From Myxococcota bacterium (GTDB lineage: Bacteria > Myxococcota_A > Polyangia > Nannocystales > Nannocystaceae), in contig JBCCHT010000025.1 in NCBI GenBank assembly GCA_039028615.1, positions 143,948 to 207,947 of the forward strand: DNA of 64,000 nucleotides, read 5' to 3'. Below the pieces are notes generated by a model that was given only the letters and a program-made list of their open reading frames with translations, was not told where the DNA came from and made no database searches. Within the stretch, counting starts at the first letter, position 1; each line of letters opens with the position of its first letter. A program made the position numbers and the translations under genes. Positions 44,556-62,265 of this stretch are shown in pieces.

Positions 44556-44869
44556 GGCCGGGAGTATCCGACATCGAGACCGCGGGAGTAGGCCCAAAGC
44601 CGCCGAATCGATGGCCCCTCGTGTGTCGGATCTCCGGTCGGCAGCTCCGCCGATCCCGCGGGCCCCGAGTAGAGCACGCTAACGACGTTGAACCGCGTGC
44701 TGTACCCCGCTCATCGGCGACGACGGGCACGACGGGAGGGTCGTAGTCGCGCGCCGAGTTGCCGACATTGTCCTACTGAATGTAACGGGAGTGCCTTCAA
44801 TTGCCTGTGAGCGTCGGAAAAAGTCACGGCCCGCGGTGTCGATTCTGATGAAGACGGAAGACGCGACGA

Positions 44870-45572: not shown

Positions 45573-46901
45573 TCAGGCACCTCCGCACGCGGCCGTCACG
45601 ATGCGATCCCAGCGGGACGGGGCCGAGCCGGCCGCATAGCGCCGGGCCACGGCACGGGCATCGTCGGCTCGGCCGGCCGTGCACAAGACCTTCAGGCGCG
45701 TCGAACGAGCCTCGTCGCGCAGGACGCCGCGATCGAAGCGAGCATCGTAGTCGTCGAGTACAGACAGAGCCTTGCTCGTGTCACCGCGACGCAGCGCGCC
45801 GCGGGCGAGCTCCAGCAGGCGCGTTTCCTCGGCGAGAGTCGAGGCTGCCGTCGGCGGAGGCACAGTCGTTGCCGATGGCTTCGTGCTCCGCCGTGCCTTG
45901 CTGGCGCGACGCTTCGGCGAAGGCTCGGTCGAGGCCGCCGACGCGCGAGGAGGGGGAACCGGCTCGACCGGCGGAGGCTCGACCGTCGCATCGACGACCG
46001 CGGGGGGAGGCGGGACCGCAGGTGGGCTCGGCGGGGCAACCGGCTCGGCGCGCGGCACCGTAGCGGCGACCGTCTGAGGCTCGCGCTCGGGCTGCTCGCC
46101 AGCCGAGGTCGATGCGACCCACGTCAGCCCCAGCGCTCCGGCCACGGCCCCCACGACGATCGGCAACGTCCACCCACCGCTCGACGACAGCGTGATGCTC
46201 TCCCACCCGGGCACGGCCGGCGAGCTCCCCTGCTCGAGCTGCAGCGCGACCGCAGCCGCCACCGCCTTGCGACGCCGCGCCTCGGGGCGCTCTTGGGCCG
46301 CAGCCTGAAGCACCGCCCGCGGCCGCAGCTGGCTCACCCGTTGGTTGCCGCGCTCCCGCGCATGCATCCGCCGCAGCGCGGTCCCGAACCGCTCCCGAGC
46401 GAGCCGCAGCCGCGAGTGCACCGTGCGAGGGTTGACGCCGAGGATCCGTGAAATCTCCCGCACCTCCACGCCCTCGATCTCGGCGAGCACGAACACGGTG
46501 CGCTTGGGCGGATCGAGCTGTTCGAGGAGCGTGTCGACCAGGTGCCCCGCCTCCGCCCGTGCGAGGTGATCCTCGGGGTCGACGGTGGAGCGACCATGCA
46601 TGCCCTCGCCCGCCTTGGTGCGCCGCGCCGCCTCGCGCGTGTCGCTGCGGCGCCGGGTCGAGGCCACCCGCACGGCCACCGCATAGATCCACGTGCGCAG
46701 CGACGCATGCCCGCGAAACTCGGGCAGCCGCCGCATGACCACCAAGAAGGTGTCCTGCACCGCGTCGTCGAGGTCCGAGTCGGGCACGCCGCAGTGCCGC
46801 AGCACCCGCCAGACATACGCAGAGTGCGCGCGATAGATCGCGGTCAGGGCCGAGGGATCGGCCGATTCGCGGGATTCAAAGCTGCGGCTGCCTTCCGGCA
46901 C
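45573..46901 (-). CDS. ECF sigma factor fused to an anti-sigma-like TM/TPR module
   Basis: Sigma regions 2 and 4 (DDAVQDTFL; TVHSRLRLAR) continue in frame into a TM helix, Pro-rich linker and LAEETRLL...LCTAGR. Confidence 0.82.
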   Translation of the reverse strand: MPEGSRSFESRESADPSALTAIYRAHSAYVWRVLRHCGVPDSDLDDAVQDTFLVVMRRLPEFRGHASLRTWIYAVAVRVASTRRRSDTREAARRTKAGEGMHGRSTVDPEDHLARAEAGHLVDTLLEQLDPPKRTVFVLAEIEGVEVREISRILGVNPRTVHSRLRLARERFGTALRRMHARERGNQRVSQLRPRAVLQAAAQERPEARRRKAVAAAVALQLEQGSSPAVPGWESITLSSSGGWTLPIVVGAVAGALGLTWVASTSAGEQPEREPQTVAATVPRAEPVAPPSPPAVPPPPAVVDATVEPPPVEPVPPPRASAASTEPSPKRRASKARRSTKPSATTVPPPTAASTLAEETRLLELARGALRRGDTSKALSVLDDYDARFDRGVLRDEARSTRLKVLCTAGRADDARAVARRYAAGSAPSRWDRIVTAACGGA

Positions 46902-46950
46902 GGAAAAACGCAAAGTCCTCGATGGTTGGTGCCGCCGATCGGCGTACGCA

Positions 46951-47991
46951 TCAAGGAATTTTTCGTGCGCGGTGGATCTCGAGGCCGACCAACCCCCGCA
47001 GACCGCCCGCGCCCGCCGTCCACTGGCCCTGGACGCCATCGACCGAAAAGGCGGGGCGGTACAGCGAGATCACGCCTTCGAGCCCGGCCCACAGCGAAAT
47101 TCGCTCCACCATCGCGTACTCGAGGCCGGGTTGGAGCACAGCCCCCGCCCAGGGAGCGACCGCCGATCGAGCCTCGATGAGCGCATTGCCCGTGCCTTGC
47201 CCCAGCACGGCGCCGCCATCCACCCCGGCGCACAGAGGCACGCGCAGCCGACCCCGGCCGAGCACGGGACAGACCCGCACCCCACCGCTGACCAGGCGCA
47301 CCACGCCGGCCGCGTCCTGCTGCGCATCGAAGGAGACCCGACGCCCCGACCACGCCTGGACAGCCGCTCGTACCTGGATCCGCTCGGTCCCCAGCCAGGG
47401 GGAGAGCACGCCGCCAAAGCCGGCTCCGGGCAGCACCAGGCCTCCCGGGCCCGCGCCGAGCCGCACGCCGAACTCGAGACCGGGGGCGACCGACCGCTTC
47501 CGCTCGGCCTTCGTCTTTGGCGGGGTCCCGGGCGGCTCGGGCCGCGGGGGCTCCACGGGCGCGGGGCGTCTCGGCCGACGTCGCACCGCCGGCTCGGGCA
47601 CGGTCGTTGGCTCCTGCTCCGCCTCCGACTCCTGCTCGGCGATCGCCTCCGCCGTCGTCAGAGGATCCAGCCCGACCGCGACCACCACCATGTTCGCGCG
47701 CGCCAAGAGCTCGCACTCGGGCGCCCACAGCTCGCGCGTGGACGAGGCCGGACCCGCATCGAGCACCAACCGGGAGGCAAAGCCGTCGTCGCGGGCCTCC
47801 ACCGTGATCTCCGCCCGCACGGCGATGGTGGGCGGAGCGTCGAGGGTCAGCGCCTCGAGCCAGCCGTCGACCTGCCCTTCATTCGGGCATCCCGGCGGCG
47901 CGACCCAACGCAGCGCCACACCAGCGCGACGGGGAACCTCCGACCGCGGGCTGGACAGCGCCATCGTCGCGATCAGGCCGAGCATGAGCAT
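46951..47991 (-). CDS. Exported WxAPxGCP-motif protein with probable beta-barrel
   Basis: Signal peptide, WVAPPGCP, VAVGLDP, Pro-rich linker, beta-strand C-terminus; paralog of 12317-13297. Confidence 0.65.
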   Translation of the reverse strand: MLMLGLIATMALSSPRSEVPRRAGVALRWVAPPGCPNEGQVDGWLEALTLDAPPTIAVRAEITVEARDDGFASRLVLDAGPASSTRELWAPECELLARANMVVVAVGLDPLTTAEAIAEQESEAEQEPTTVPEPAVRRRPRRPAPVEPPRPEPPGTPPKTKAERKRSVAPGLEFGVRLGAGPGGLVLPGAGFGGVLSPWLGTERIQVRAAVQAWSGRRVSFDAQQDAAGVVRLVSGGVRVCPVLGRGRLRVPLCAGVDGGAVLGQGTGNALIEARSAVAPWAGAVLQPGLEYAMVERISLWAGLEGVISLYRPAFSVDGVQGQWTAGAGGLRGLVGLEIHRARKIP

Positions 47992-48047
47992 GTCGTTTTT
48001 CGTGATACCGCCGACCGACCGCGGCCACAAACCAACGAGACCGACTC

Positions 48048-48641: not shown

Positions 48642-48725
48642 AGCCCGGGTTGCGAACACGGTTCGTCGCCACGCGGCATTTCGACGGCTTTCATGCGCGC
48701 ACAGGGCCACGGCCCGCGTGCGAGC

Positions 48726-49853
48726 ATGAAGGTCATGACGCGTACGGTGACCTCGCAGCCCTCGCATACGCACGACGTCAGCCCGCCGACGAGCTCGTAC
48801 GGGCAACCCCAGGCGCAGGACACCGCGGCTCCCGTGCAGCCCATGCTCCACGGGCTGCGCGACTTCGGCGTGGGGCGCCGCGGAGGCCCCAGCACCTCCG
48901 CCCTCGCCTCGGGCGGCAACGTCATCCAGCGCGTGAAGTCCAAGATCAAGGGCTTCGACGACGAAGAGACCGAGTCGGAGATCAACTACGATCCGGCGAA
49001 ACAACTGAGCCAAGGGGCCGAGGGCACCGTGCACGTGGGCAAGATCGGCAAGCGCAAGGTGATCGTGAAGGTCGCCAAGCCCGTCGGAGAGCTCGGTACG
49101 CAAAACGAGATCGGGATCCTCGGCAAGGTACGACCGGGGCCCCATATCGTGGGCGCGATCGGTCACGGGAAGACGGCCGGAGGGAGCTCGGTGGTGGTCC
49201 TGAACAAGGCCGACCACTCGCTCAACAACCAGCTCCCCAAGGACATCCACCGTCGACTCAACCTCGCTCTGGGTACCGGTCGCGGGCTCCAGAGCCTGCA
49301 CGATCAGGACATCACGCACGGCGACCTGAACCTGAAGAACATCCTGTCCACGAACGGTGAGGCGCAGCTGACCGATTTCGGAGCGGCCGCGGATTTCAGC
49401 AATTCGGACAGCATACAGCTACCGCTCGACCCGGGGCTGGCCGCCATGGGCATCCAACCGGAGACCATCCACAAAGACGCCACGAAGCTCAAGGACCGCA
49501 AGGACTTCAGGAAGGCGGCCGTGAACATCCTGCGTGGCAACAAGGCCAACGACGAGTTCGATGGCGACGCGATCGACGCCCTGGAAAAGAGCCTCAGCCT
49601 CAAGGGCCTGTCGAAGGCGAGCATCACCCCGATCATCAAGTTCGCCCGCAAGCAGAACCCGACCGAAGACGACCACGCCGATTTCGTGAAAGCCGCTCAC
49701 CTCACCGTCGAGCGCAACCGGCTCATGAAGCAGCTGGAGGCCACGCCGACCGGCGGGAAGAACAAGAAGAAGAACAAAGAGTACAAGGCGGCGCGACTGG
49801 CCATTCAGTCCAAGCTCTCCGCCAACAAGAAGGCGCTCGCCGAACTCTCGTGA
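48726..49853 (+). CDS. Soluble Lys-rich protein kinase-fold protein
   Basis: LSQGAEGTV, VIVK, NEIGIL, HGDLNLKN, TDFG; no TM segment. Confidence 0.8.
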   Translation: MKVMTRTVTSQPSHTHDVSPPTSSYGQPQAQDTAAPVQPMLHGLRDFGVGRRGGPSTSALASGGNVIQRVKSKIKGFDDEETESEINYDPAKQLSQGAEGTVHVGKIGKRKVIVKVAKPVGELGTQNEIGILGKVRPGPHIVGAIGHGKTAGGSSVVVLNKADHSLNNQLPKDIHRRLNLALGTGRGLQSLHDQDITHGDLNLKNILSTNGEAQLTDFGAAADFSNSDSIQLPLDPGLAAMGIQPETIHKDATKLKDRKDFRKAAVNILRGNKANDEFDGDAIDALEKSLSLKGLSKASITPIIKFARKQNPTEDDHADFVKAAHLTVERNRLMKQLEATPTGGKNKKKNKEYKAARLAIQSKLSANKKALAELS

Positions 49854-49868: not shown

Positions 49869-52385
49869 CTACCGATAGTAGCTGAGCAGGCGGCCGTCCT
49901 TGGCGTCCACCACCAGCATGCAACCCGCCAGCATGTAGAAGCGGCCATCCCCGGGCAGCACCGCGCGGGCGGAGAGCTGTCGCTTCCAGGTCTGCTCCCA
50001 GCGGGTCTTGCCGTCGCGGGTCTCGATCATGTGCATGGCGATGCGGTCGTCTCCATAAGAGACCACCACGATGCCCGAGCCCACCACCACCGCCACGATG
50101 TCGCCCTTGATGTCGCGCAGGCTGTCGAACTTGCGGGTCCACTCCACCGTGGTCGCGCGGTAGCGAATCATGTGGGGGATGTTGGTCCCGCGCGACTTCT
50201 CGTACAGGGCGAAGTCGCTGCGCGGGCACGTGGCCATGAAGCCGCGGGTGAAGTCGCAGAAGCGGTCGCCGATGGACGCCTCGAACTCGAGGCCCTCGAT
50301 CTGCGGGAAATCTTCGTCGCGCAGCCGCTTGATCCGCGTGGGCTTGGCCACGTCCGAGGTCACCCGCCCGCTCGTGAGCGACACCGCGCTGACGACGTTG
50401 TCGATGGTCTCGACGTAGACCTCGTCGTCCTCGACCACGAACCAGAACACGTCGTCGGACAGCTGCCCCTCCCACCGCGTGTTGCCCGTCGCCATCTCGA
50501 TGCCGCGAATGTTGCGGCCGAAGGACTGCACGAGCAGGTCGTCGTGGAAGCCGTAGCGGCGGACCTCGGAGCGGTGCTCGTCGGGCGCGAGCTTCCACAG
50601 CGGCTGCATGGTCTTGCCGTTCAGCGCGATGACCTTGGACATCATGGGGTCGCTGGCCTGCAAGAACTCGACGATGACGTCTTCGGTGCCGTCTTTGTTG
50701 AAATCGTCCGCGTGCACCAGCGCCTGGGGCACGGTGGGCGCGAACGAGATCGGGGGGCCTCCTTGGCACGCGGCCGCGACCGCCTCGCCGAAGTCCTCGG
50801 TGTCCAGCGGCTTGGGGGGCTTGCCCTGGCTGGGGGAGTCGCCGGAACTGGGCGTATCGGTGACTCCGGGCACCCCGGGGATCTTGGGTACGCCCGGCAC
50901 CTCCGACGCGGCGTTGCTCGAGCTCGCTCCGCTGGACGGGGCCGCCGACGCGGATGCACTCGAGGCGCCGTCGTCCTTGCCCATCAGCAGGACGCCCGCG
51001 ACTCCGGCCGCGATCAGCACGACGGGGATCAACAGGAACGGCCAGACGGGGCGGCTCTTGGTCGGCGCGCCCGTGGCGTTTCCGACCGCGGTGGGCACCC
51101 CGGCCGAGGCCGCATGGTGACTACCCGCGGCGGGATGCGATGCGCCCGCGGACCAACCGGGGGCCGCTCCAGACCCGCCGGGCCCGGTGGGCGCCGCCAC
51201 TGCGCCCGCCCCCGGCTGGCTCGCGGCCCACTGCGACGCGCCGGGCATCGCCCCCGCGGGCGGTACGCTGCCGGGCGATGAAGCGGGCGCCGAGGCTGCG
51301 GTTCTGCCCATCGGCCCCGGCATGCTCGGAGCCCACTGCGACGCCCCCGGAAAGTGCCCCGCCGGAGCACCGTGGGTCGGCTGCGGACCGGCCTGCACCG
51401 CCCCCGTCCCCGGGAGGCTGGACAGCAGCTCGGCCCCCTGCCCCGGATTGCCGTGGGTGGGTGGGTTGCCGGGGAGCCCCGGATCGCTGCCCTCCCACGC
51501 CGACGCCCCCGGGAAGCTCATCTCGTTGCCCGGGCCCGCTCCGCCGACCACCGGCTTGAAGCTCAGCGATGCGGGCACGCCGGGCAACGACGAGAGCATC
51601 TGCAGCACCGCGTTCGCGCTCGAGGGACGACCGTCGGCCGACTTGGCGAGCAGCAAGTGCATGATCTCCACCAGGTCGGGCGGCGTGGCGTGCTGCACCT
51701 CGGGCGGCAAGGGGGGCACGGGCGCGGTGCACTGGGCATCGAGCAGCGCCCGGGTCGAGGTCGAGGTGAAGGGCGGCGCCCCCGTGAGCATCTCGTAGAG
51801 CACCAGACCGGCCGCATATAGATCGGTCCGCGGATCGATGGTCGTGCCGTCGATCTGCTCGGGCGCCATGTACTGCAGCGTGCCCACGTCGGCGGTGGCC
51901 TTGGTGGCATCGCGCATGACCTTGGCGATACCGAAGTCCATCACCTTGATGGTGGTGTCCTCGGTGACCATGACGTTCTCGGGCTTGAGGTCCCGATGCA
52001 CGACGGCCGGCTTCTGCTCGTGCGCCGCCCCCAGCCCGGAGAGGATCTGCCGCAGCATGATGACCGCGTCGGTCCATGCGAACCGGGTCATGCGCTGGAG
52101 GCTCTGGCGCAGGGTCTCACCCCGCATCAGCTCCAGCACCATCACCAGCTGCTCGCCGTGCTCCTGGCAGGCGAGCAGGCGCACCACGTTGGGGTGATCG
52201 AGGCGGGCGAGGATTCCCATCTCACCAACGAACAGCTCGCGCCCGCGCGGCGACGCCGCGATGTTCCCGTGCATCACCTTGAGCGCGACGGGACGCCGAG
52301 ACAGCCGCTCCTGCGCCTCGTACACGGCTCCCATCCCGCCGCGGCCCAGCTCGCGCAGGACCATGTATTCGCCGATTTGTTTCAT
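49869..52385 (-). CDS. Membrane Ser/Thr kinase with extracytoplasmic PQQ-like beta-propeller
   Basis: GRGGMG, ALK, HRDLKPEN, DFG, YMAPE; TM VWPFLLIPVVLIAAGVAGVLL; DFNKDGTED and GxxRW repeats; ATGA overlap. Confidence 0.92.
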   Translation of the reverse strand: MKQIGEYMVLRELGRGGMGAVYEAQERLSRRPVALKVMHGNIAASPRGRELFVGEMGILARLDHPNVVRLLACQEHGEQLVMVLELMRGETLRQSLQRMTRFAWTDAVIMLRQILSGLGAAHEQKPAVVHRDLKPENVMVTEDTTIKVMDFGIAKVMRDATKATADVGTLQYMAPEQIDGTTIDPRTDLYAAGLVLYEMLTGAPPFTSTSTRALLDAQCTAPVPPLPPEVQHATPPDLVEIMHLLLAKSADGRPSSANAVLQMLSSLPGVPASLSFKPVVGGAGPGNEMSFPGASAWEGSDPGLPGNPPTHGNPGQGAELLSSLPGTGAVQAGPQPTHGAPAGHFPGASQWAPSMPGPMGRTAASAPASSPGSVPPAGAMPGASQWAASQPGAGAVAAPTGPGGSGAAPGWSAGASHPAAGSHHAASAGVPTAVGNATGAPTKSRPVWPFLLIPVVLIAAGVAGVLLMGKDDGASSASASAAPSSGASSSNAASEVPGVPKIPGVPGVTDTPSSGDSPSQGKPPKPLDTEDFGEAVAAACQGGPPISFAPTVPQALVHADDFNKDGTEDVIVEFLQASDPMMSKVIALNGKTMQPLWKLAPDEHRSEVRRYGFHDDLLVQSFGRNIRGIEMATGNTRWEGQLSDDVFWFVVEDDEVYVETIDNVVSAVSLTSGRVTSDVAKPTRIKRLRDEDFPQIEGLEFEASIGDRFCDFTRGFMATCPRSDFALYEKSRGTNIPHMIRYRATTVEWTRKFDSLRDIKGDIVAVVVGSGIVVVSYGDDRIAMHMIETRDGKTRWEQTWKRQLSARAVLPGDGRFYMLAGCMLVVDAKDGRLLSYYR

Positions 52386-54487
52386 ATGCCCTGATTCCTT
52401 GGCGCGGCCGCGACGGCGACGTGAGCGTGGGGATGGCCATGCACGGGCGCGACGTGGACGGGGCCTTCGTCGACCCGGCGGATCCCCAGCGAGCCCAGGA
52501 AGGCCCACGGCGCCACGTTACCGATCATCACGAAGACCGCGTCGACCCCCAGCGTCTGGGTGCCGCCCGAGCCGGATAGATGCACGACCCCCGGCTCCAG
52601 CTGCGCGATCTCGGTGGAGAAGCGCAGATCGATGTTGCCCAGCTCGGCCTGGCGCCGTACTTCTTCGATGTTGCGACGCTTGCCGCGTTTGAAGTCGGGG
52701 CCGCGGTACGAGACGGTGACCTTGGTTTGAGGCTGGCTCGCGAGGGCCACCGCGGCCTCCATGGCCACGTCACCCAGGCCCACCACCAAGACCCGCTGCC
52801 CCGCGAAGCTGGCCGCGTCCGCCAGCGAGTAGTGCACGTGGTCGACCATGGGGTCGGGGATGGGCACCTTCAGCTTGCGCGGCGTGCCGCGACGCCCGAA
52901 CGCGAGCAAGACCCGCTTGGCCATCACCTGAGTGGCCTGCCCGGTGCTGGCCACCGCGTCGACGCGGAAGGGCCCGCCCCACTGCAGCGCGGCCATGCCC
53001 GTGACCCGGGTCCGCTCCTGCACGTGGATCTGCCGCGAGCGAATGATCTTCATCCACTGCGCCAGCAGCTCTTCCTTGGTGCTCTCCTGCATCCACAGCG
53101 CGCCGATGGCCGGCACCTCGAGCGGCTGATCGAAGACCAGCTTGTCGCGCGGGAAGCTACGGATGCTCTCCGCCACCCCGCCCTGGTCCATGATCACGAA
53201 GCGGAGACCGAGCTGCTGCGCCTCGAGGGCCGCGCTGATGCCCGCGGGGCCGGCCCCCACGATGACCACGTCCACCGCGTCCGTGCCGACCGCCGCCGGT
53301 CGAGCGTGGAGCGACGCATGGATGTTGCGCATGGCCATGGACCCCTGGTTGATCGCGTTCTTGATGAGCGGCAGCCCGGTGAGGTCGCCGGCCAGGAACA
53401 CGCCGGGGTTGTCGAGGCTCTCGAGGTTCTCGCCCATGCGCGGCAAGTCGCCGATGGGCTCGCCGTCGGACATGACCAAGGCCCCGGTGGGACAGCGCTG
53501 CTCGCAGAGCGTCAGGCCGCAGCAGTCGTCGGGGCGACTGACCCGGGCCAGGAAGTTGCGCATCTCGAGCACGTCGTAGGGGCACGCATCGACGCAGGCG
53601 TTGCAGCCGATGCAGATGGAAGGATCGATGCGAGGCAGGCGAACGCGGGTGGCCGGCATCACGTCGACGTCGGCCGCGGCGTCGCCCGTGGCCTTGCCCA
53701 CCGCGTTGCCGAGCGCTCGCCACACCAGCGCCGCGCCCCCGGCCACCAACAAGCCCGCGAACACGGCGAGCCACGGCCACCAGGCGAGGTCCTCCTCGGG
53801 CTCGGTGCCCGGGGGGCTGCTGCGCGCCACCTTGGCCGCGGCGAGCCAGGCCACTGGGCGCTCGGGGTCGAGCGACGAGCGGTGAATGTCGAAGCACAGG
53901 TTGCCCGCCGTCGGGTTCACGCAGGCCGCGGCGGCGTCGCTGTCGTGGTCGACGACATGGCAGCTGCTGCAGGCCGCCGCGTCGACCAGCGACACGTGCA
54001 TCGTCTTCGGCGGACGCAGCAGCCCCTCGAGCTCGGTCAAGACCGTCTGCGTCTCGCCGTGCCAGCGCGTCACCGTGCCGTCGGAGGCGAAGGTCACCCC
54101 CTCGGCCGCGTGCGGCGGGTGACAGGTCAGGCAGCTCCACGAGCCCTCGGCCGCCAGCGCCACATGCGGTGCCCGGCGAGGCGCGTAGTCGTGACACGTA
54201 CGGCAGGTGTCGTCGTCGGGCGTGGCCGTGCTGGTGTGGCACGACTCGCACTCGAGGCCGGCCGCCTTGTGGGGCGCGGACACGGTTCGGCCCGACGCGC
54301 CCTCGGGCGCGAGCGTCGAGACCCACCACCCCACGCCCGCGACCAGCAGCATCGTCACCGCCGCCGCGAAGCCGATGCCCCGGAAGCGCCGTACGTCGCT
54401 GCTGCGCTCGTACTTGCGGGCGACTCGCGAGCGCCCCTTCACGGGCGCCGACTTGTCGACGAAGACGGTGTTGGAGCCGTCGTTCAT
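52382..54487 (-). CDS. Multiheme cytochrome c / ferredoxin / thioredoxin-reductase-like flavoprotein fusion
   Basis: TM; CESCH, CRTCH, CLTCH, CSSCH; TM; CIGCNACVDACP and CCGLTLCEQRCP; GAGPAG; GLGDVAME. Confidence 0.85.
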   Translation of the reverse strand: MNDGSNTVFVDKSAPVKGRSRVARKYERSSDVRRFRGIGFAAAVTMLLVAGVGWWVSTLAPEGASGRTVSAPHKAAGLECESCHTSTATPDDDTCRTCHDYAPRRAPHVALAAEGSWSCLTCHPPHAAEGVTFASDGTVTRWHGETQTVLTELEGLLRPPKTMHVSLVDAAACSSCHVVDHDSDAAAACVNPTAGNLCFDIHRSSLDPERPVAWLAAAKVARSSPPGTEPEEDLAWWPWLAVFAGLLVAGGAALVWRALGNAVGKATGDAAADVDVMPATRVRLPRIDPSICIGCNACVDACPYDVLEMRNFLARVSRPDDCCGLTLCEQRCPTGALVMSDGEPIGDLPRMGENLESLDNPGVFLAGDLTGLPLIKNAINQGSMAMRNIHASLHARPAAVGTDAVDVVIVGAGPAGISAALEAQQLGLRFVIMDQGGVAESIRSFPRDKLVFDQPLEVPAIGALWMQESTKEELLAQWMKIIRSRQIHVQERTRVTGMAALQWGGPFRVDAVASTGQATQVMAKRVLLAFGRRGTPRKLKVPIPDPMVDHVHYSLADAASFAGQRVLVVGLGDVAMEAAVALASQPQTKVTVSYRGPDFKRGKRRNIEEVRRQAELGNIDLRFSTEIAQLEPGVVHLSGSGGTQTLGVDAVFVMIGNVAPWAFLGSLGIRRVDEGPVHVAPVHGHPHAHVAVAAAPRNQGI

Positions 54488-54488
54488 C

Positions 54489-56813
54489 TCACAGCCACCG
54501 CTCCATCGCCGTGACCACGTGGATGATGAGCAAGCCCATCAGCACTGCGGTGGCGAGCATGTGGGCGGGCAGCCACATTCGCAGCGCTCGCATCAGCCAG
54601 ATCCGCGCGGGCAGGGCTCGCACCGCCACGGCGCTGCGCACCGCCTCTTTGATGTCGACCGTCTCGCCCGAGGCCACGGGGGGAATGCGCTTGGTGACCC
54701 GCCGCAGCAGCAGGGCTTCCTCTTGCTTGAGGGTGCGGCCGCTGGCGATGAGCGTCGTGGTGCCCAGCGGCGTGCGGACATAGGACGACAGCGCCGGTCC
54801 CACGATCGCCTGCACGGCCGGGGGTTGGGTGCCCACGGCCCGTCGGAAGCGATCGTCGAGGCGCTCGCGCTCGGCGGGGAAGTCCTCGGGCAGCAGGCTC
54901 TTGCGCTCGAGCTTGGTCAGCCGCCGCGGCAGCGAGCGATAGACCCAGGCGCTGAGGATGCCCAGCAGCGACACCACCCAGAACGACAGCGCGGCCGCCC
55001 CCGCGATGTTGTTGGGCACGCGCATCTGAGTGTGCAGCGCCACCGCCCCCATGGCCAGCAGCCCCACCGCGATGTGGAACGCGAGGAAGCGGCGCACCTT
55101 GGAGCGCGCGACCTCGCTGGACTTGTCCGCGTTCGCCTTCTTGCGTCGCAGCCAGGACCGAGGGATCCGCTTGGGCGCCACGTAGAGCATCGCGAGCACG
55201 ATGGTCACCGCCCCGAGCACGCCCGCCGTAAGCCCGACCAGGCCCGCCGACGCGAACAGTCCCGTGCCCGCGATGCGGCTGCCCGCCACCAGCCCGGCCA
55301 CCCCGAGCGCCAGCGGCCACCAGGCGTTGACCCGCTCCACCACCGAGCGTCGTGGTCGGCCCTCGTTGCCCATCAGCGAGGCGACGTCCCGGAAATCGGT
55401 GGACGGGTCGAGGCGCAGGATGGCCTCGGTCGGGCACGCGCTCACGCAGGCGGGCGCCGAGTAGTCGCGGCACAGGTCGCACTTGACCGCCAGCTCGGTC
55501 GGCCCGACGGGCGCGGGGGCTCCGGGGGCCGCAGCCGGCATCAAGCTCGGCGCGATGGGCAGCGACTTGGGTCGCGGCGCCATCTGGATGTTGTCCCACG
55601 GGCACGCCTTGGCGCAGTTCGAGCAGCCCGTGCACAGCTCCTCGCGAATGAACACCTCGCCCTCGGGGTCGCGACCGATCGCCGCCGTCGGGCAGTCGAT
55701 CATGCACACCGGGTTGCTGCAGTGCTGGCACGAGTTGGGCAGCATGAGGCTGCGGACCCCGTCGTCGCGCCCCTCGACGTCGAGCCGAGCCAGGGTCTTG
55801 TCGCCGCGCCGCACGATCCGGGCGACGCCGTGCACCTGGTTGCAGGTCCACGTGCAGTGCCCACACCGCACGCACAGGTCCTGGTCGATGGTCAGCAGCG
55901 AGCTGGCCATCTGCATCTGGTACAGGTCGGCGAACACGTGGCGCGTGCTGTTGTCCTCGCCCGGCGCGACCTCTCGCACCACCTCGCGCTGGGCCTGTCG
56001 CCGCTCGATGCTGGTGCGCTGCAGCTGCCGGAGCAGGCGACCGTTGCGATCGGCCAGCGTGCGAAAGAGCCGAGCCGGGATCGCCAGCAGCTGGCAGTGC
56101 CCCACCGCCACCGCCGAGCGCTTGCGTCGACGCGCGGCCACGATGTCGTCGTCACCGAAGAAGTCACCCGGCGTCAGGTAGGCGGTGACCCGCAGCGCCC
56201 CGCCGTCACCCGACTGCACCTGCACCATGCCCTCGAGCACCAGGTACAGCCACTTCGCCGCGTCTCCGCTGCGATAGACGGGATCCGAGCGGCGCACCTC
56301 GATGTGCTTGGCCCCGTCCACCGCCATCGCGAAGTCTTCGTCGGGCAGGTCGCGAAAGAACAGCCCCGCCCGCAGGATGTCCTTGGTCGCGTTGCGACGC
56401 AGGCGTCGCGCGAGACGCTGGAGCTCGTCGCTGTCGCCCTGCTCGCCCGCGACCGCGGCCGCCCGCCGAAACAGCGGCCCGGGGATCGACACGAAGGTGG
56501 CCGCCGTCGCGGCCCGAGCCTCCGCCCGCCGAGCGTGCCCCAGCAGCGCCTCTTCGCCGAAGCTCTCGTAGGGCCCCACGTCGCGAATCACCCGGGGATG
56601 GTCGTGCCCCCGCGGCGTGGCCATGAGCTGCACCGAGCCCCGCGCCAGCACGTACACGTGATCGCTGCTCTGCCCCAGCCCGAAGATCGAGGACCCCGCG
56701 GGCACCTGCAGCGTGCGTCCGGCCTCGGAGATCCGCCCCTTGGCACTGGCCGACAGCTCGCGCAGCAAGGGCGCCTCGAGCAGGCGCGGATCGAAGGGAT
56801 GCTCGGCGTTCAA
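54489..56813 (-). CDS. Tandem cyclic-nucleotide-binding, multi-[4Fe-4S], membrane protein
   Basis: FGEEAL...RRA and FFGDD...RKRSA cNMP domains; CVRCGHC, CQHCSNPVC, CTGCSNC, KCDLC; His-containing TM helices; TTG start at 56813 overlaps the upstream TGA. Confidence 0.85.
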   Translation of the reverse strand: MNAEHPFDPRLLEAPLLRELSASAKGRISEAGRTLQVPAGSSIFGLGQSSDHVYVLARGSVQLMATPRGHDHPRVIRDVGPYESFGEEALLGHARRAEARAATAATFVSIPGPLFRRAAAVAGEQGDSDELQRLARRLRRNATKDILRAGLFFRDLPDEDFAMAVDGAKHIEVRRSDPVYRSGDAAKWLYLVLEGMVQVQSGDGGALRVTAYLTPGDFFGDDDIVAARRRKRSAVAVGHCQLLAIPARLFRTLADRNGRLLRQLQRTSIERRQAQREVVREVAPGEDNSTRHVFADLYQMQMASSLLTIDQDLCVRCGHCTWTCNQVHGVARIVRRGDKTLARLDVEGRDDGVRSLMLPNSCQHCSNPVCMIDCPTAAIGRDPEGEVFIREELCTGCSNCAKACPWDNIQMAPRPKSLPIAPSLMPAAAPGAPAPVGPTELAVKCDLCRDYSAPACVSACPTEAILRLDPSTDFRDVASLMGNEGRPRRSVVERVNAWWPLALGVAGLVAGSRIAGTGLFASAGLVGLTAGVLGAVTIVLAMLYVAPKRIPRSWLRRKKANADKSSEVARSKVRRFLAFHIAVGLLAMGAVALHTQMRVPNNIAGAAALSFWVVSLLGILSAWVYRSLPRRLTKLERKSLLPEDFPAERERLDDRFRRAVGTQPPAVQAIVGPALSSYVRTPLGTTTLIASGRTLKQEEALLLRRVTKRIPPVASGETVDIKEAVRSAVAVRALPARIWLMRALRMWLPAHMLATAVLMGLLIIHVVTAMERWL

Positions 56814-59800
56814 TCGATCACCACCGTCCGACGGTGCAGCTCCACCGCCTCGAGCCGCTCGAGCACGTCCAGGGTCAGCAGCGGACCGTCCGGGCGCTCC
56901 CCCTTCTCCGTCATGTAGGCCTCGTACGCGGCAAAGGTCCGCAACAAGAAGGGCGGGAACCCACGGAAGAGCAACCGGGCCTCGACCTCGAAGGGACCCT
57001 TGCTGCCGTCCGTGGACAGCAGGTAGGTGTAGCGCACGGGGGTGTCCGGCGGGATCGAGCGCGTGTCGATGATCGCGTCCGGTCCTCGCAGCACTCCGCG
57101 CTCGCTGTCGAGCGAGCCGACCGGGAAGAACACCTCGGTGAAGCGGTGGTGCCCCTCGAGGTTCGACTTGCACTCGCCGGTATCGATGTCGTAGTCGCCG
57201 TCCTCGAAGCGATCGTAGCGGTGGCCGTTCTGCAAGAAGCCCGGCTTGCAGTGACCGTCCTCGTCGATCGTGCCGCGGCACCGAACGCAGCGCAGGAAGC
57301 CGTTTTGCAGGTTGATGAGGCCCTTGCCGCGGAACTCGGTGCCGCCGAGCTCGGGGTTGGGATCCCACTGCGGCACGTCGGGCCCGTCCACCACATCCGC
57401 CCCGAACAACCCCAGCGGCTGCCCGGCGTCGTCGGTGTTGTCGTCGCGTACGGTGACCTTCTCGAAGATCTTGTCGTGCAGGTCCTCGTCGCCCCGGTCG
57501 ACGCGACCGACCTCGTAGACCAGCTCGCCGTCGGCATCGGTGACCCGCAGGTGCACCCAGATCTCTCGCTCTTGGGAGAACCCGGCCGGCACCCGGTGCC
57601 CCGCGCCCACGTTCTCCATGACCAGCGGGATCTCGAGATCTTCGCCCGAGCGCTTCGGCGGCTCGAGCTCGAAGCGGAACGCCACGCCCAGCAACATGTC
57701 GCGGCGCCCCATGAGGCCGACCGGCGTGCCCTCGGCATCCACCCCGACCTCTTCGATCAACGCGTCGGGGAACGATGGCGTGAGCGGCACGTCGACCGAC
57801 GAGAAGTAGTGCGAGACGATCGGCGAGGGGTCGCTGCGATTGGCGATGGCTCCCTGCGGATAGTCGCCCGGAGAGCGCGGCTCGAAGTGCGTCCCGGGCG
57901 GGCACGCGCGCACCAACGCCACGTCGCCCGGGTCCGGCCCGTCGCCGCCCGCCGAGTCCGCCACGCACAGCCCCGGGAATTGAGACATGTGGCAGTCCTG
58001 GCAGCTGTAGACGTCGGCGCCGGCCTTCTTGCGATCGTCCGCCCATACCCGCCACTCGGAGTACGCGTTGCGCAGGCGCTTGAAGTGCTCACCCCGCTCG
58101 ATGCCGATCGAGTCGGTCCCGAAGAGCCGGACGTCGTGGCAGGTGCCGCAGAACTCGCTGCTGCGACGGTACTCCTTGACGTCCTTGGGCGTGGCCGCGT
58201 GCGGCATGCCGCCGTTGCTCGCCGCATCGGCCAGGAACTGCGCCGCGTCGAGGAAGTAGGCCGAGTTCGCAATGCCCGGGACCTCCGCCGACTCCGGCCG
58301 CATCCCGTAGACATTGTCCGACGTAAACGAGTGCCACGCGGGATTGCCCATGTACGTCCCCGCGTCGGCATCCTCGGGTCGAACCCCGCGGGTCACCTGA
58401 TGGCAAAATGCACAGTCGATCCCCTCGAGCTGGCTCTCGGAGAGCATGCTGAGCAAGGGCCGACGCCGATCCGACTTGTCGCGGACGCCGTCCCAGGCGG
58501 GCACTTGGTTGCCCAGGTTCGTCAGCGGGCTATGGCAGTTGATGCACCAGCCCTCGCCGCCCGTGCCGGTGAGCGAGCGCCCGTTCGCCGTGCACGAGTT
58601 GCCGACCTCCGCAAAGCGCAGCACCCCTGCCCCGTGCGGACATGCGTCGCTGCGGGCCACCTGCTCTTCGATGAGCATCTCCAGCGACTGGAACAGCGGG
58701 CTCCGTGCCGCTTGGCCCATGATCGATCGGCGCCACTCCATCATCTGCCGCGTATGGCAGGCCCCGCAGTCTTCGGGGCGGGTCTTCGCGGGCACCAAGG
58801 CCGTGGCCGGGCGCAGCGACGGCTCGGGCTTGCTCTGCTCCTCCGCCATCCCGCTCAGGAACCATGCGGCCGGGGCCGCCACCGCCACCGCCAGAGCCCC
58901 GCTGAGCCAACCGGGAGCCGAACGGCGCTTGCTCGGCGTCGCCACGGGGCGAGCGGGCGACGACATCTGAGCCGAGCTCGCCGCGGGCATGGGCGGGTGC
59001 GAAGGATGACCCGAAGCCACGGGGCCCGGCTCCGAGCTCGCCGCGGGCATCATCTGCTGGAGCATCTCCGCGCTACCAAACGCGGTCGATGCCGGGGCCA
59101 GCGGCTTGGCCGAGGCGTCCGCCCCGGCCTGCGATGCCGCGCCCTGTGACAGATGCTGCTCGAGTCGGGTGATGAGCTCCGCCCAGGTGCTCGGCCGTCG
59201 CCGCGGCTGGGTGTCGATCATCGCCAGCAGCGTGCTCGCCAGCCCGGCCGGCAAGGCCTCCGCCGCCGCACCGTGGGGCGGCGAGGGCTCGCGTGAGCGC
59301 GTGTGCAGGCCATCGCCGGAGAACGGCTCCTCCGCGCAGAGCAGGCGATACAGCAAGCGACCCAGCGCATAGCGATCGGCCGATGAAGAGGGCTTGCCCG
59401 CGGGCGTCTCGGGCGGACGCCACGCGCCGCGGGTCGGGGGCCAATGCGGAGACGCGTCGACCAGCCGCCGTACCGCGCCGCTGTCTGCCACCACCAACGC
59501 CGTCTGCTCGCCCGGGGCCACCCAGCGCAAGGTCTCGGGCTCGATCGGGCCCGCTCGGATCTTTCGCTTCTCGCAGGACGACAGCGCCCGCGCCAGCACC
59601 AACACCAGCTCGCACGCCCGCCGCCACGGCACCGGCTCGGCCGACATCGTCTGCATCAGCGGCTCGCCGAGCGTGCGCACCACCGTGAACGAGCCCGCCT
59701 GCGCGGGCGCGGCATGAAATCCGCCCACGTTCATCGAGCCGAGCCACGCCAGCCACTGCTGCGCCGTCTCGTCGGGCACCACCCAGCGCTCGACGGGCCC

Positions 59801-59887
59801 CTCGTGAAAGACCAGCGCTCGACCGATCGACTCGTTCGGAGCACCAGGCACGGCCGAAGGCGGATGACCGGAGATCGTAGCCACCAC
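56810..59887 (-). CDS. Pseudokinase / TM / pentaheme cytochrome c fusion
   Basis: Kinase C-lobe remnants (WRPPE, SADRYALGRLLYRLL, PRRRP); TM; CGACH, CINCH, CAFCH, CGTCH, CQDCH; GAGHRVPAG. Confidence 0.8.
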   Translation of the reverse strand: MVATISGHPPSAVPGAPNESIGRALVFHEGPVERWVVPDETAQQWLAWLGSMNVGGFHAAPAQAGSFTVVRTLGEPLMQTMSAEPVPWRRACELVLVLARALSSCEKRKIRAGPIEPETLRWVAPGEQTALVVADSGAVRRLVDASPHWPPTRGAWRPPETPAGKPSSSADRYALGRLLYRLLCAEEPFSGDGLHTRSREPSPPHGAAAEALPAGLASTLLAMIDTQPRRRPSTWAELITRLEQHLSQGAASQAGADASAKPLAPASTAFGSAEMLQQMMPAASSEPGPVASGHPSHPPMPAASSAQMSSPARPVATPSKRRSAPGWLSGALAVAVAAPAAWFLSGMAEEQSKPEPSLRPATALVPAKTRPEDCGACHTRQMMEWRRSIMGQAARSPLFQSLEMLIEEQVARSDACPHGAGVLRFAEVGNSCTANGRSLTGTGGEGWCINCHSPLTNLGNQVPAWDGVRDKSDRRRPLLSMLSESQLEGIDCAFCHQVTRGVRPEDADAGTYMGNPAWHSFTSDNVYGMRPESAEVPGIANSAYFLDAAQFLADAASNGGMPHAATPKDVKEYRRSSEFCGTCHDVRLFGTDSIGIERGEHFKRLRNAYSEWRVWADDRKKAGADVYSCQDCHMSQFPGLCVADSAGGDGPDPGDVALVRACPPGTHFEPRSPGDYPQGAIANRSDPSPIVSHYFSSVDVPLTPSFPDALIEEVGVDAEGTPVGLMGRRDMLLGVAFRFELEPPKRSGEDLEIPLVMENVGAGHRVPAGFSQEREIWVHLRVTDADGELVYEVGRVDRGDEDLHDKIFEKVTVRDDNTDDAGQPLGLFGADVVDGPDVPQWDPNPELGGTEFRGKGLINLQNGFLRCVRCRGTIDEDGHCKPGFLQNGHRYDRFEDGDYDIDTGECKSNLEGHHRFTEVFFPVGSLDSERGVLRGPDAIIDTRSIPPDTPVRYTYLLSTDGSKGPFEVEARLLFRGFPPFLLRTFAAYEAYMTEKGERPDGPLLTLDVLERLEAVELHRRTVVID

Positions 59888-60031: not shown

Positions 60032-60586
60032 TCACTCCTGCCATCGCCCCTCGAAACGGCCGGCGAAGAAGCTCCCCTGCCCCTTGACCAGGATCTCGCA
60101 CTTCGGCCGCTTCCGCGACAGTGCCTCCAACGCCTCGCGCGAGCCCGTTTCCGTGTCCACCACCAGCTCTTCGAGGTCGGGTACCCCCGACAGCGCCATC
60201 AGCCCCGTCGCGCGGATCGAAGTCTCGTGCACCTGCAGATTCACCAGCCGGGTCAACGCGCTCAGGTGAGGCACACACCCGTCGTCGAGCTGCGGGTTGT
60301 CCTTGAGGCGCAGGTATCGAAGCGCGGGTAGCCGGGCGAGCACCGCGAGGCCGCCGTTGGTCAGCGCCGTGTGCTGAAGCCTCAGGTTGTCCAGCGTGGT
60401 GCACTCGCACACGTAGCCCAGGCCTTCGTCCGTCAGCGGCACGTCGCAGAAGCTCGCCGACGAAAGCCGCGGCAGCGCGGCCAGCCGTCGCAGCTGCTGC
60501 ATGTCGTACGACTCGCCGAAGGGCCGCGGAAGAAAGTGTTCGCTCGTCGGACCGAGAACCTCGCCGAAGACTTCGACCGTACTCAC
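60032..60586 (-). CDS. Leucine-rich repeat protein
   Basis: LTDEGL, LRLQHTALTNGGL, LRYLRLKDNPQLDD, LQVHETSI repeats; start uncertain. Confidence 0.65.
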   Translation of the reverse strand: MSTVEVFGEVLGPTSEHFLPRPFGESYDMQQLRRLAALPRLSSASFCDVPLTDEGLGYVCECTTLDNLRLQHTALTNGGLAVLARLPALRYLRLKDNPQLDDGCVPHLSALTRLVNLQVHETSIRATGLMALSGVPDLEELVVDTETGSREALEALSRKRPKCEILVKGQGSFFAGRFEGRWQE

Positions 60587-60652
60587 CGGCCCCAGCCTAT
60601 CCCGACCGTCACTTGGTGTGGTGATCCCATCGCGAGTACCATCGCCTCGCCG

Positions 60653-61141
60653 ATGTCCGTGCGTCCTGCATCGATCCGCCTCTTCGCCTTCGACATCGAC
60701 GGCACCCTCACCGACGCTACCACCTGGTGGGGCGGCGAATCCCGGGGGTGGCTGCAGCGCTACAGCGTGCGCGACGGCGAGGCCCTCAAGCGGCTGGCCG
60801 CCGACCGCCACGTCCTGCCCCTGTCGCGCAACAAGACCGATTCTGCCGCCCAGCGCATGCGCGGCCTCGGCTTCGACTCCCGCTGGCTCGGCGTCAGCGA
60901 CAAGGTCGCCTCCATCCGCGAGATCTGCCGCGAGTACCAGGTCGACGCCCGCGAGATCGCCTTCGTCGGAGACGGCCCCGACGACGCCGTCGTCTTCCCC
61001 GAAGTCGGCCTGGGCTTCGCCGTCGCCGACGCCCACCCCGAGGCCCTGCAGGCCGCCCACGTCGTGCTCGACTCACCCGGCGGGGGCCGAGCCGTCGAAG
61101 AGATCGAGCTTCGCCTCGCCGGGACATGGCCGGCACAATGA
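60653..61141 (+). CDS. kdsC: KdsC-family HAD phosphatase
   Basis: FDIDGTLTD, SVRDG, FVGDGPDD, AVADAHP, GGGRAVEE. Confidence 0.82.
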   Translation: MSVRPASIRLFAFDIDGTLTDATTWWGGESRGWLQRYSVRDGEALKRLAADRHVLPLSRNKTDSAAQRMRGLGFDSRWLGVSDKVASIREICREYQVDAREIAFVGDGPDDAVVFPEVGLGFAVADAHPEALQAAHVVLDSPGGGRAVEEIELRLAGTWPAQ

Positions 61142-62265
61142 GCCGACCCATGCGCGCCCTCGGCTTGATGAGCGGCACCTCGGCCGATGGCGTCGACGCC
61201 CTGCTGCTGCAGCTCGACGACCCCGACCAGCGGCACTGCCCCCGCGTGCTCGGCCACGCCTACCGCCCCTTCCCCGACGCCCTACGCACCACCCTGCGCG
61301 CCCCCGAGCAGCTGCGCGTCCCCGAGATCTCCGAGCTGAGCTACGCGCTCAGTGCCCGCTACGCCGAGGCGGTCAAAGCCATCGCTGCGTGGGACACCGC
61401 CGACGTCTGCGGCATGCACGGGCAGACCGTCTGGCACCGCCCGCCTTCGCAGGCCGACGGCGGCATCGCCCACACCCTGCAGATCGGCTCCAGCGGAGCC
61501 CTGGCGCAGGCCTTGGGCCTGCCCGTCGTCGGCGACATGCGGGCGGCCGACCTCGCCCTCGGCGGCGAAGGGGCCCCCATCGCTCCCCTGTCGCACTGGA
61601 TGTTCACCCCCGTCGAGCACTCGGGGCGCCTGGTCGTCAACGTCGGCGGCATCGCCAACAGCACCTTCGTCGCCGAGCGGCAGGAGCAGGTCCTCGCCTC
61701 CGACATCGGCCCGGGCATGATGATCACCGACGCACTCGCCCACCACGTCTCCGGGGGGCAGGCGCACTACGATCACGACGGACAGCTGAGCGCGGGCGGA
61801 CAGCCGCAGCCCGCCTTCGTCGAGCACGTCCTCGCGCACCCCTTCTTCTCGCGCCCGCTACCACGCTCGACCGGGCGCGAGGACTTCGGGGCCCGCTACG
61901 TGCAGTCGCTGCTCGAGCGCTTCGGCGACCTCGCCCCCGCCGACCTGCTCACCAGCGCGCTCGAGGTCACCGCCCGGGCCATCGCCCACGTCGCCCTCGA
62001 AGCGTTGTCGGGCGTCACCGAGATCGTCCTGACCGGAGGCGGCGCGCTGCACCCCCGCATCGTCGGTCGCGTGGGGCAGCTCGTAGCCTGCCCCGTCGTC
62101 GTGCACACCGAAGGCGCCCTCGCGCCTCAGCACCACGAGCCCGCTGCCATGGCCCTCATCGCCGCGCGGACCCTGCATCGGCTCCCCAGTGGATTGCCGG
62201 GGGTCACGGGCGCGCGAGCCCCTGCCATCCTCGGCCACGTACACTGGCCAACCCCGCTCGGCTGA
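61138..62265 (+). CDS. anmK: Anhydro-N-acetylmuramic acid kinase
   Basis: GLMSGTSADGVD, HGQTVWH, GGEGAP, NVGGIAN, STGRE, GGGA; ATGA overlap with kdsC. Confidence 0.93.
   Translation: MSRPMRALGLMSGTSADGVDALLLQLDDPDQRHCPRVLGHAYRPFPDALRTTLRAPEQLRVPEISELSYALSARYAEAVKAIAAWDTADVCGMHGQTVWHRPPSQADGGIAHTLQIGSSGALAQALGLPVVGDMRAADLALGGEGAPIAPLSHWMFTPVEHSGRLVVNVGGIANSTFVAERQEQVLASDIGPGMMITDALAHHVSGGQAHYDHDGQLSAGGQPQPAFVEHVLAHPFFSRPLPRSTGREDFGARYVQSLLERFGDLAPADLLTSALEVTARAIAHVALEALSGVTEIVLTGGGALHPRIVGRVGQLVACPVVVHTEGALAPQHHEPAAMALIAARTLHRLPSGLPGVTGARAPAILGHVHWPTPLG

Follow-up and report, generated by a model that had tools for sequence, protein, structure and literature searches.

A pseudokinase-cytochrome fusion and a dedicated Ser/Thr kinase family in a porin-less myxobacterial relative of the PCC4/ptd redox clusters

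The stretch of DNA analysed here (the window) comprises 64,000 nucleotides from a 12.3 Mb genome of a Myxococcota bacterium of the family Nannocystaceae (assembly GCA_039028615.1, contig JBCCHT010000025.1; G000:C25:143948-207947, C25 being our label for the contig). It contains four adjacent minus-strand genes, A to D, which encode a pseudokinase fused to a pentaheme cytochrome c, two membrane proteins with a series of predicted redox cofactors, and an intact Ser/Thr kinase. The system is real and conserved; its redox core has already been described, under the names PCC4 and ptd, and has never been tested, and the connection with a kinase is its new and best-supported feature. The four reading frames are all open, and their G+C content at third codon positions (0.89-0.93) is far above the overall value of the window (about 0.70), which indicates that they are coding. 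A and B overlap by TTGA (56810-56813), B and C are separated by a single base (54488), and C and D overlap by ATGA (52382-52385). The junctions and the domain layout of the four products had been proposed in an initial annotation made from the sequence without database searches, and both held up, the layouts in Pfam, profile, motif and transmembrane (TM) scans (Table 1). The Pfam matches themselves comprise, for B, two cyclic nucleotide-binding (cNMP) domains and Fe-S domains; for C, Fer4 and Pyr_redox_3; and for D, Pkinase and PQQ_2. The start of A is uncertain, since a database entry derived from the same window has 1013 residues, as opposed to the 1025 called here. A scan for sigma-70 promoters and terminators gave no promoter and three terminator-like sites, which is not above shuffled sequence.

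Table 1. Genes A to D and their domains (window coordinates)
Feature	Position	Strand	Details
Gene A: pseudokinase, TM, periplasmic pentaheme cytochrome c with Ig-like domain (PtdA-like)	56810..59887	-	1025 aa
A, pseudokinase domain	59132..59842	-	HRD position mostly FPGPL in the family, RAGPI in this copy; no DFG
A, transmembrane segment	58841..58900	-	single and weak, residues 330-349
A, pentaheme and beta-sandwich domain	56813..58795	-	fold of T. tepidum c552 (5ZE8)
Gene B: two cNMP domains, four-cluster Fe-S domain, 5-helix membrane domain (PtdE+PtdF fusion)	54489..56813	-	774 aa, TTG start
B, tandem cyclic nucleotide-binding domains	55959..56801	-	cassette A G-E..R95; cassette B G-D-x-E..R230
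B, Fe-S domain, DmsB/NrfC/HycB-like	55404..55907	-	16 invariant Cys; predicted 4 x [4Fe-4S]
B, membrane domain	54495..55319	-	H580-X13-H594 and H751-X13-H765; predicted di-heme b; PCC3/PCC4 inner-membrane protein family
Gene C: TM, tetraheme, TM, ferredoxin, permuted FAD/NAD(P)H reductase (PtdD+PtdC-like fusion)	52382..54487	-	701 aa
C, periplasmic heme domain	53882..54271	-	4 CxxCH; conserved H73, H108, H126, C189, C198, H202
C, cytoplasmic Fer4 ferredoxin domain	53474..53635	-	
C, GxFxAGD FAD segment	53288..53461	-	normally C-terminal, here ahead of the Rossmann fold (circular permutation)
C, TrxR/YpdA-fold flavoreductase	52472..53278	-	without any Cys
Gene D: intact Hanks kinase (cluster-dedicated family), Pro/Ala/Gly linker, TM, PQQ-like propeller	49869..52385	-	838 aa
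D, PQQ_2-type beta-propeller	49872..50639	-	missing from cluster kinases of other loci

The N-terminal part of A is kinase-like by profile comparison (E = 1.8e-20 with a bacterial protein kinase, 2e-18 with PknB chains), yet HRD and DFG are absent from all 118 A sequences that bear this domain, and we therefore regard it as a pseudokinase. The periplasmic part is a domain of about 660 residues with five CxxCH motifs, inserts and eight extra invariant Cys. Its model gave one significant Foldseek match, the penta-heme cytochrome c552 of Thermochromatium tepidum (PDB 5ZE8, 18% identity), i.e. the protein that the ptd preprint names as a PtdA homologue; the match rests on structure, the sequence profile reaching an E value of only 0.28 against 5ZE8. 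A differs from c552 in being membrane-anchored and fused to a pseudokinase. Across the homologues of A the pentaheme domain is better conserved (about 52-58% identity) than the pseudokinase (30-37%). One position of the pentaheme domain, residue 392 (window 58712-58714), two residues after an invariant Met, is His in 120 of 132 sequences and Gln in this copy and 11 others, and it is possible that this difference is a switch of heme ligand. Another cytochrome with five c hemes and an Ig-like C-terminal domain is the polysulfide reductase MccSep (PMC13510729), defined by a His/Cys heme and a selenocysteine; it demonstrates that proteins built in this way can be enzymes. Compared by description, A lacks an in-frame stop, the region from heme motif 2 to motif 5 contains no free Cys, and invariant Cys pairs are found elsewhere in the protein; an identity of A with MccSep is unsupported.

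Kinase D has an intact catalytic domain, in which the Gly loop, VAxK, HRD and DFG are all present and conserved in the family alignment, followed by a TM segment (residues 444-474) and a PQQ_2 propeller. The same genome carries a second copy of the cluster on contig C13 (G000:C13:130858-141144, L074) in what proved to be the canonical order, i.e. short kinase-A-B-C followed by a gene with a vWA domain. This copy is preceded by genes for a gamma-glutamyltranspeptidase and a HAD hydrolase, a pair that recurs ahead of several related copies. The kinase domain of D is 56.2% identical to that of the C13 cluster kinase, while the next-ranked of the roughly 350 kinase domains of the genome reaches at most 39.9%. 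A tree was built from 58 kinases, namely D, 18 of the 37 cluster kinases, another 9 members of the family and 30 unrelated-family kinases of the same genome; in it the 28 family members form one clade with a support of 0.875, and D and its orthologue are the outermost branch.

The distribution of this kinase family was followed in one set of 201 genomes of the class. A and the kinase family occur in the same 33 genomes, and the membrane domain of B in these 33 and four more; large, kinase-rich genomes that have no A (G374, G008 and G023) have no family kinase either. Counting one copy per genome, the kinase gene is adjacent to A in 30 of the 33 (24 upstream on the same strand, 6 divergent) and lies on another contig in three, two of which have A at a contig start. 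The tie between kinase and redox genes claimed in the initial annotation thus extends well beyond this window, and we conclude that the family of D is dedicated to the A-B-C cluster. Within the cluster the kinase goes with A and not with B, as four genomes have B without the kinase, and in split clusters (L089, L090 and L091) kinase and A stay paired while B lies apart. A scheme resembling protein kinase A, suggested by Foldseek matches, in which the tandem cNMP domains of B would inhibit the kinase, was also considered; the kinase, as just said, keeps company with A.

Gene order in the relatives shows that the four-gene arrangement of the window, which ends in a kinase-propeller gene and had been taken as the unit, is not the conserved one. 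Among 57 loci (L019-L075), 40 hold A with room upstream, the remaining 17 being cut by contig ends or lacking A; a short kinase-TM gene lies directly upstream of A on the same strand in 36 of the 40, one kinase is divergent and three loci have none. These cluster kinases measure 348-464 residues from the kinase start and have no propeller. A vWA-domain gene is present in 30 of 58 loci; 25 of these genes could be placed, 23 of them on the strand of C and 20 within 500 bases of its end, so that the vWA gene is a probable fifth gene of the cluster. In this window there is no vWA gene and D occupies its slot. We consequently regard kinase-A-B-C(-vWA) as the conserved unit and the window as a rearranged copy. 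The vWA protein has about 520-570 residues and an N-terminal hydrophobic segment (e.g. L038:12758-14377), and at L070 and L154 its gene lies behind a divergently placed kinase rather than behind C. The propeller was rejected as a conserved part of the cluster, given that the kinases of other loci do not have it and that the one orthologue with it is unlinked. A separate observation concerns one genus (L149-L153), in which the cluster kinase has additional, unlinked paralogues that differ in their C-terminal parts. Named relatives are mostly from Polyangiaceae and Nannocystaceae, which points to a myxobacterial source; the cluster genes are present in cultured Polyangium, Chondromyces and Minicystis, and protein A in Sorangium.

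The rearrangement raises the question of whether D still serves the cluster. D could be a bystander in this copy, i.e. a duplicated family kinase that gained a propeller and a new input and came to lie after C by rearrangement, the copy then being served by the short kinase of C13 or by none. D is indeed more distant from the cluster kinases (median identity 54%) than these are from each other (69-70%), it sits in the vWA slot, and its orthologue in genome G042 is unlinked and adjoins a probable transposase frame. Against this, the start of D overlaps the stop of C, the only other member of the dedicated family among the genome's own kinases (about 350) would have to have landed here by a rare chance, and in each of the two genomes seen to have a D-type kinase there is a further A-B-C copy. 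We regard a bystander role as unlikely.

The redox part of the system would begin in the cytoplasm with C and B. The model of B is one confident unit (pLDDT 91.2, pTM 0.87), in which two cNMP domains (PF00027, matched twice, Pfam E = 2.9e-29) are followed by an Fe-S domain, where PF13247 scores above its cut-off, and by a membrane region with four TM segments in a hydropathy scan and five long helices in the model (499-513, 525-542, 573-595, 603-634 and 722-773). The first cNMP cassette is canonical (G in 132/132, E in 127/132 and R95 in 128/132 sequences). All 132 sequences have the 16 Cys of the Fe-S domain and His580, 594, 751 and 765, with the same 13-residue spacing in each His pair. The HX13H motifs sit on the third and fifth membrane helices, as in the PCC3 and PCC4 inner-membrane protein, and this His pattern predicts that B binds two b hemes. 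The strict form of the motif, WX3HX13H, is eroded in the B family (W is found in 21/132 sequences at the first and in 89/132 at the second site), and of SGXXG on TM4 the last Gly (G618) alone is invariant, whereas distant matches of the B membrane profile have both WX3HX13H motifs in 12 of 12 checked cases and SGxxG in 9 of 12; B is therefore a diverged relative of the PCC3/PCC4 protein. The profile has 2925 representatives at E<=1e-3, and the weak Pfam matches of its members are to Ni_hydr_CYTB (6/38), DUF4405 (5) and Ferric_reduct (3). No PDB sequence was found with the membrane-domain profile (best E 0.18), and in fold searches with the whole B model the cNMP domains were the sole matches. 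Another frame of the same genome (G000:C50:54720-56432) has cNMP and Fe-S matches and no membrane-domain match.

In C, four CxxCH motifs between two TM segments are invariant in 38 of 38 homologues, and the domain is assigned as tetraheme by motif count. Downstream of the fourth motif, residues 189-202 (window 53882-53923) form a conserved C-x(n)-C-x3-H pattern, possibly a disulfide or else a fifth heme site of a non-canonical kind. The ferredoxin domain is immediately followed by the reductase (Pyr_redox_3, E = 1.5e-29), whose flavin domain is closest to YpdA/Bdr and to the ferredoxin-NADP+ reductases of the thioredoxin reductase (TrxR) type (PDB 7A76, 7A7B and 3AB1). The GxFxAGD segment ahead of the Rossmann fold matches the C-terminus of GltD (E = 5.6e-5), and two relatives (L125 and L140) have the flavin domain in the normal order; the order in C is thus a circular permutation. 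An assignment to YpdA/Bdr was rejected, the TIGR04018 score being 120.2 bits against a cut-off of 339.9, and so was one to thioredoxin reductase, as there is no Cys after residue 332 and hence no CxxC in the NADPH domain; a reductase without Cys cannot be a disulfide reductase of the TrxR type. YpdA/Bdr and the TrxR-type ferredoxin-NADP+ reductases remain the best solved relatives and are likewise without CxxC, but C is permuted and fused to a ferredoxin. NADPH is a plausible reductant, judging from the invariant R595 and R601 by analogy with TrxR-fold enzymes.

It is instructive to compare these proteins with the two systems in which their parts have been described. The ptdABCDEFG genes (bioRxiv 10.1101/2023.11.21.568154) encode, according to the accessible parts of the preprint, a c552-like pentaheme protein with a beta-sandwich, a cNMP/4Fe-4S protein and a ferric-reductase-like protein; ptdAB are transcribed in marine oxygen-deficient zones and the function is called completely unknown. 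The pentaheme protein homologous to c552 with its C-terminal beta-sandwich, the FAD/NAD(P) oxidoreductase, the tetraheme protein, the cNMP and Fe-S protein and the ferric-reductase-like membrane protein are all shared with our cluster, so far as that description goes, and by architecture A corresponds to PtdA, B to PtdE and PtdF, and C to PtdD and PtdC. The clusters differ as follows. In ours, five parts have been merged to give three membrane proteins, the pentaheme protein is anchored and bears a pseudokinase, a dedicated kinase is present (and in the relatives usually a vWA gene), with no kinase in the ptd description as available, and there is neither a porin (PtdB) nor a decaheme protein (PtdG), the operon having motifs for five plus four hemes only. 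As to the porin, the coupling of A to D leaves no room for one, and none was recognised in scans that did not include a porin profile: among the 14 commonest flanking families of 58 loci, 9 were scanned by representatives, of which 7 had non-porin Pfam matches and 2 had none. An unlinked porin is possible. As PtdB and PtdG are absent, the cluster would work like PCC4/ptd without being a full member.

PCC4, as described by He et al. in 2017 (PMC5566968), combines a porin and cytochromes with 4, 5 and 10 hemes with an Fe-S gene, further redox genes and a 5-TM protein in which the WX3HX13H motif occurs twice; the sections of that article at hand also mention porin-less clusters of cytochrome, inner-membrane protein and redox protein (Table S6), a pfam13247 Fe-S gene upstream of the 5-TM protein, and one fused annotation in Oceanospirillum. 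Shared with our cluster are the 5-TM protein with two HX13H motifs, the pfam13247 gene, the 4- and 5-heme cytochromes and the further redox genes; the differences are the eroded strict motifs and the lack of a porin and a 10-heme protein. The initial annotation had known no characterised pathway with this layout; the redox core is in fact on record, if never characterised. In the supplements of He et al., as far as covered, myxobacteria, cNMP and kinases are not mentioned; their Supplementary Figure 4 (domain architectures), which falls outside that check, may show a cNMP domain. Two other articles (PMC9900912 and PMC12442390) treat PCC3 alone in the parts available. A parallel on the signalling side is a cluster of Ferrigenium straubiae (bioRxiv 10.64898/2026.01.22.701106), of unknown function according to the accessible text, in which a membrane-anchored multiheme protein bears a phospho-signalling domain on its cytoplasmic side and is accompanied by a 5-TM and a 4Fe-4S protein; it combines an FHA reader with a wire-like nonaheme protein, as opposed to the pseudokinase and the c552-fold pentaheme of A. 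No literature was found on a pseudokinase-cytochrome fusion or on a myxobacterial form of the cluster, in a search that left subscription papers largely outside.

More distant relatives combine these parts in other ways. The B membrane profile matches 29 of 201 genomes of the phylum, and 20 of these loci were examined. Three are kinase-A-B-C clusters. Two (L125 and L140) have reductase, both cNMP domains and the Fe-S domain in one chain, together with a separate membrane protein and an FHA-TM-decaheme protein; in seven a ferredoxin-reductase is joined to the membrane domain and the neighbouring cytochromes have up to 42 hemes, and in eight there is a free membrane protein, most often beside a 21-27-heme cytochrome. 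Such fusions, in which the reductase is linked either to the cNMP/Fe-S part or to the membrane domain, lend support to the electron chain proposed in the initial annotation. The fused forms at L132 and L134-L138, where the reductase is permuted and the adjoining cytochromes have 26-42 CxxCH, resemble PCC3-type clusters with an NAD(P)H input, and at L127, L129, L131 and L133 the clusters of a 21-heme cytochrome and a membrane protein repeatedly have Sel1-ankyrin repeat genes as neighbours. There are also kinase-less sister clusters with B and a C-like protein, of which five were fetched; in all four that were scanned the C-like protein has 3-4 FHA domains ahead of its TM-heme part. Sister clusters of this kind are those at L144-L148 and L072, most of them beside divergent 7-16-heme cytochromes; in L144-L148 the C-like protein is encoded by frames of 1200-1400 residues and has 7-8 hemes. 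An Anaerolineales record (L060:6353-10494) has a Pyr_redox-FHA-FHA protein and a cNMP-FeS protein without membrane domain, divergent from a vWA gene. The redox parts thus recur in fusions with one another and in association with phosphothreonine modules, and the FHA-bearing sister forms together with the kinase family suggest that these conduits are in general controlled by a layer of threonine phosphorylation.

The reading that we favour, with somewhat better than even confidence, is that A, B and C represent PCC4/ptd in a fused myxobacterial version without a porin, a conduit from NAD(P)H to the periplasm with kinase D as its likely switch and cyclic nucleotide binding as a predicted second gate. 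NAD(P)H would reduce the FAD of C, whose ferredoxin would hand the electrons to the four predicted [4Fe-4S] clusters of B; the two predicted b hemes of B would carry them across the inner membrane to the periplasmic tetraheme of C and next to the pentaheme of A, which probably reduces a periplasmic substrate. The three proteins would form a complex. The cNMP domains of B would gate the cytoplasmic step, and the dedicated kinase would switch the chain by phosphorylating threonines, the pseudokinase probably serving as scaffold. Every redox part of this chain has a counterpart in the ptd and PCC4 descriptions as available, which supports it, and the genome encodes cytochrome c maturation genes and six class III cyclases.

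The opposite direction of flow is also on record as a proposal. He et al. proposed, in the sections at hand, that PCC4 passes electrons inward to the quinone pool and that its inner-membrane protein is a quinone-active cytochrome b (PMC5566968). Applied to our cluster, A would oxidise a periplasmic donor and the b hemes of B would feed the quinone pool or NAD(P)+; the weak Ni_hydr_CYTB matches of some B membrane domains (6/38) and the DmsB/NrfC type of the Fe-S domain, which is found in quinone-linked complexes, are in line with it. Here, however, the membrane domain is fused to a cytoplasmic Fe-S wire, and in relatives to a ferredoxin-flavoreductase. Fusions of this kind resemble the NAD(P)H-fed transmembrane transfer of the FRD/NOX type, and we hold inward or quinone-linked flow to be rather improbable. 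Still less probable, to the point that we would be surprised by it, is extracellular electron transfer (respiration or oxidation of metals) through an unlinked porin-cytochrome. PCC4 and ptd have been proposed as conduits for such transfer in the descriptions available, and the genome has 17 frames with at least four CxxCH, three of which have 11-13; but the operon has no porin or decaheme gene, none was recognised among the recurrent flanking families examined (58 loci), and all cytochrome domains are anchored in the inner membrane.

Several observations weigh against the regulated outward conduit as we picture it, besides the inward proposal of He et al. just mentioned. On the side of the nucleotide gate, the second cNMP cassette of B deviates from the canonical pattern (G-D instead of G-E in 120/132 sequences, E at +2 in 111/132, R230 in 127/132), and there is no cyclase gene inside the cluster. 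On the side of the kinase, four genomes have B without A or kinase, the kinase is transcribed divergently in 6 of 33 genomes and is unlinked from A-B-C in G006 and G022, and the propeller form of D was found once elsewhere, in an orthologue (75% identity in the kinase domain) on another contig than its A-B-C (L085). A Pfam scan of this cluster found no FHA domain, so that the cluster encodes no reader of phosphorylation. At L142 (5750-7963) and L143 (5537-8269) A has no pseudokinase and still lies directly behind a family kinase, which shows that the pseudokinase is dispensable in two genomes. The predicted complex of the pseudokinase of A with the kinase domain of D scored 0.00 in two runs with no folded controls, which speaks neither for nor against a contact. 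The co-occurrence counts come from a single sample, with a kinase family cut of E<=1e-95 that is our own choice and 4-12 candidates scored per genome; absence means not found, and related genomes are not independent. Finally, the accessible PCC4/ptd literature contains no experiment on any cluster member.

The constancy of the pseudokinase also invites a reading in which A is primarily a redox receptor: its pentaheme would sense a ligand and signal through the pseudokinase to the kinase, B and C would only reset the sensor, and the output would be phosphorylation elsewhere. Kinase and A are adjacent when B is elsewhere (L089-L091) and have the same phyletic profile; A has the topology of a receptor, the dead pseudokinase is kept in 118 of 118 sequences with the domain, and porin and decaheme protein are lost. 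On the other hand, two genomes keep kinase-A-B-C without the pseudokinase, the pentaheme is better conserved than the pseudokinase and has the architecture of an enzyme-like cytochrome, and the phospho-module of the FHA-type relatives is a reader, which suggests input rather than output. A receptor of this kind is in our view unlikely, if a shade less so than D being a bystander. A related arrangement, in which both functions are combined, seems to us the least doubtful of the minority readings and is offered tentatively: A would be a bacterial receptor-pseudokinase, a single-pass protein with a pentaheme outside that is fed by a cNMP-gated NAD(P)H wire and a dead kinase inside that contacts and controls a dedicated Ser/Thr kinase.

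The surroundings of the operon in the window deserve a brief description. Divergent from A-D are genes for a HAD phosphatase and an anhydro-N-acetylmuramic acid kinase (60371-62265, plus strand), which are not among the listed recurrent neighbours of the cluster. Convergent with D is a kinase gene of degenerate appearance (48693-49853, plus strand; Pkinase E = 6e-11); the stretch where it lies has the highest AT skew of the window (0.235). Further away on the minus strand are a pair of genes for an ECF sigma factor and a kinase-TPR protein (40999-44597) and a second ECF sigma factor gene with a long extension, behind a gene without a Pfam match (45573-48030).

PCC4/ptd systems are widespread and, in the descriptions available, of unknown function and so far read as extracellular electron conduits. 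What is new here is a pseudokinase fused to the terminal cytochrome and, in the same genomes, a dedicated kinase family that probably regulates the chain. That the inner chain and the pentaheme are kept while porin and decaheme protein have been dropped points to the reaction of the pentaheme as the core of the system, and since five parts are reduced to three proteins, in myxobacteria that are in culture, the function of the family is directly testable. If A is a receptor-pseudokinase, electron flux, a second messenger and phosphosignalling would be coupled in one machine, and the PCC4/ptd family would be a regulated system for redox reactions or sensing in the periplasm, not a wire for metal respiration.

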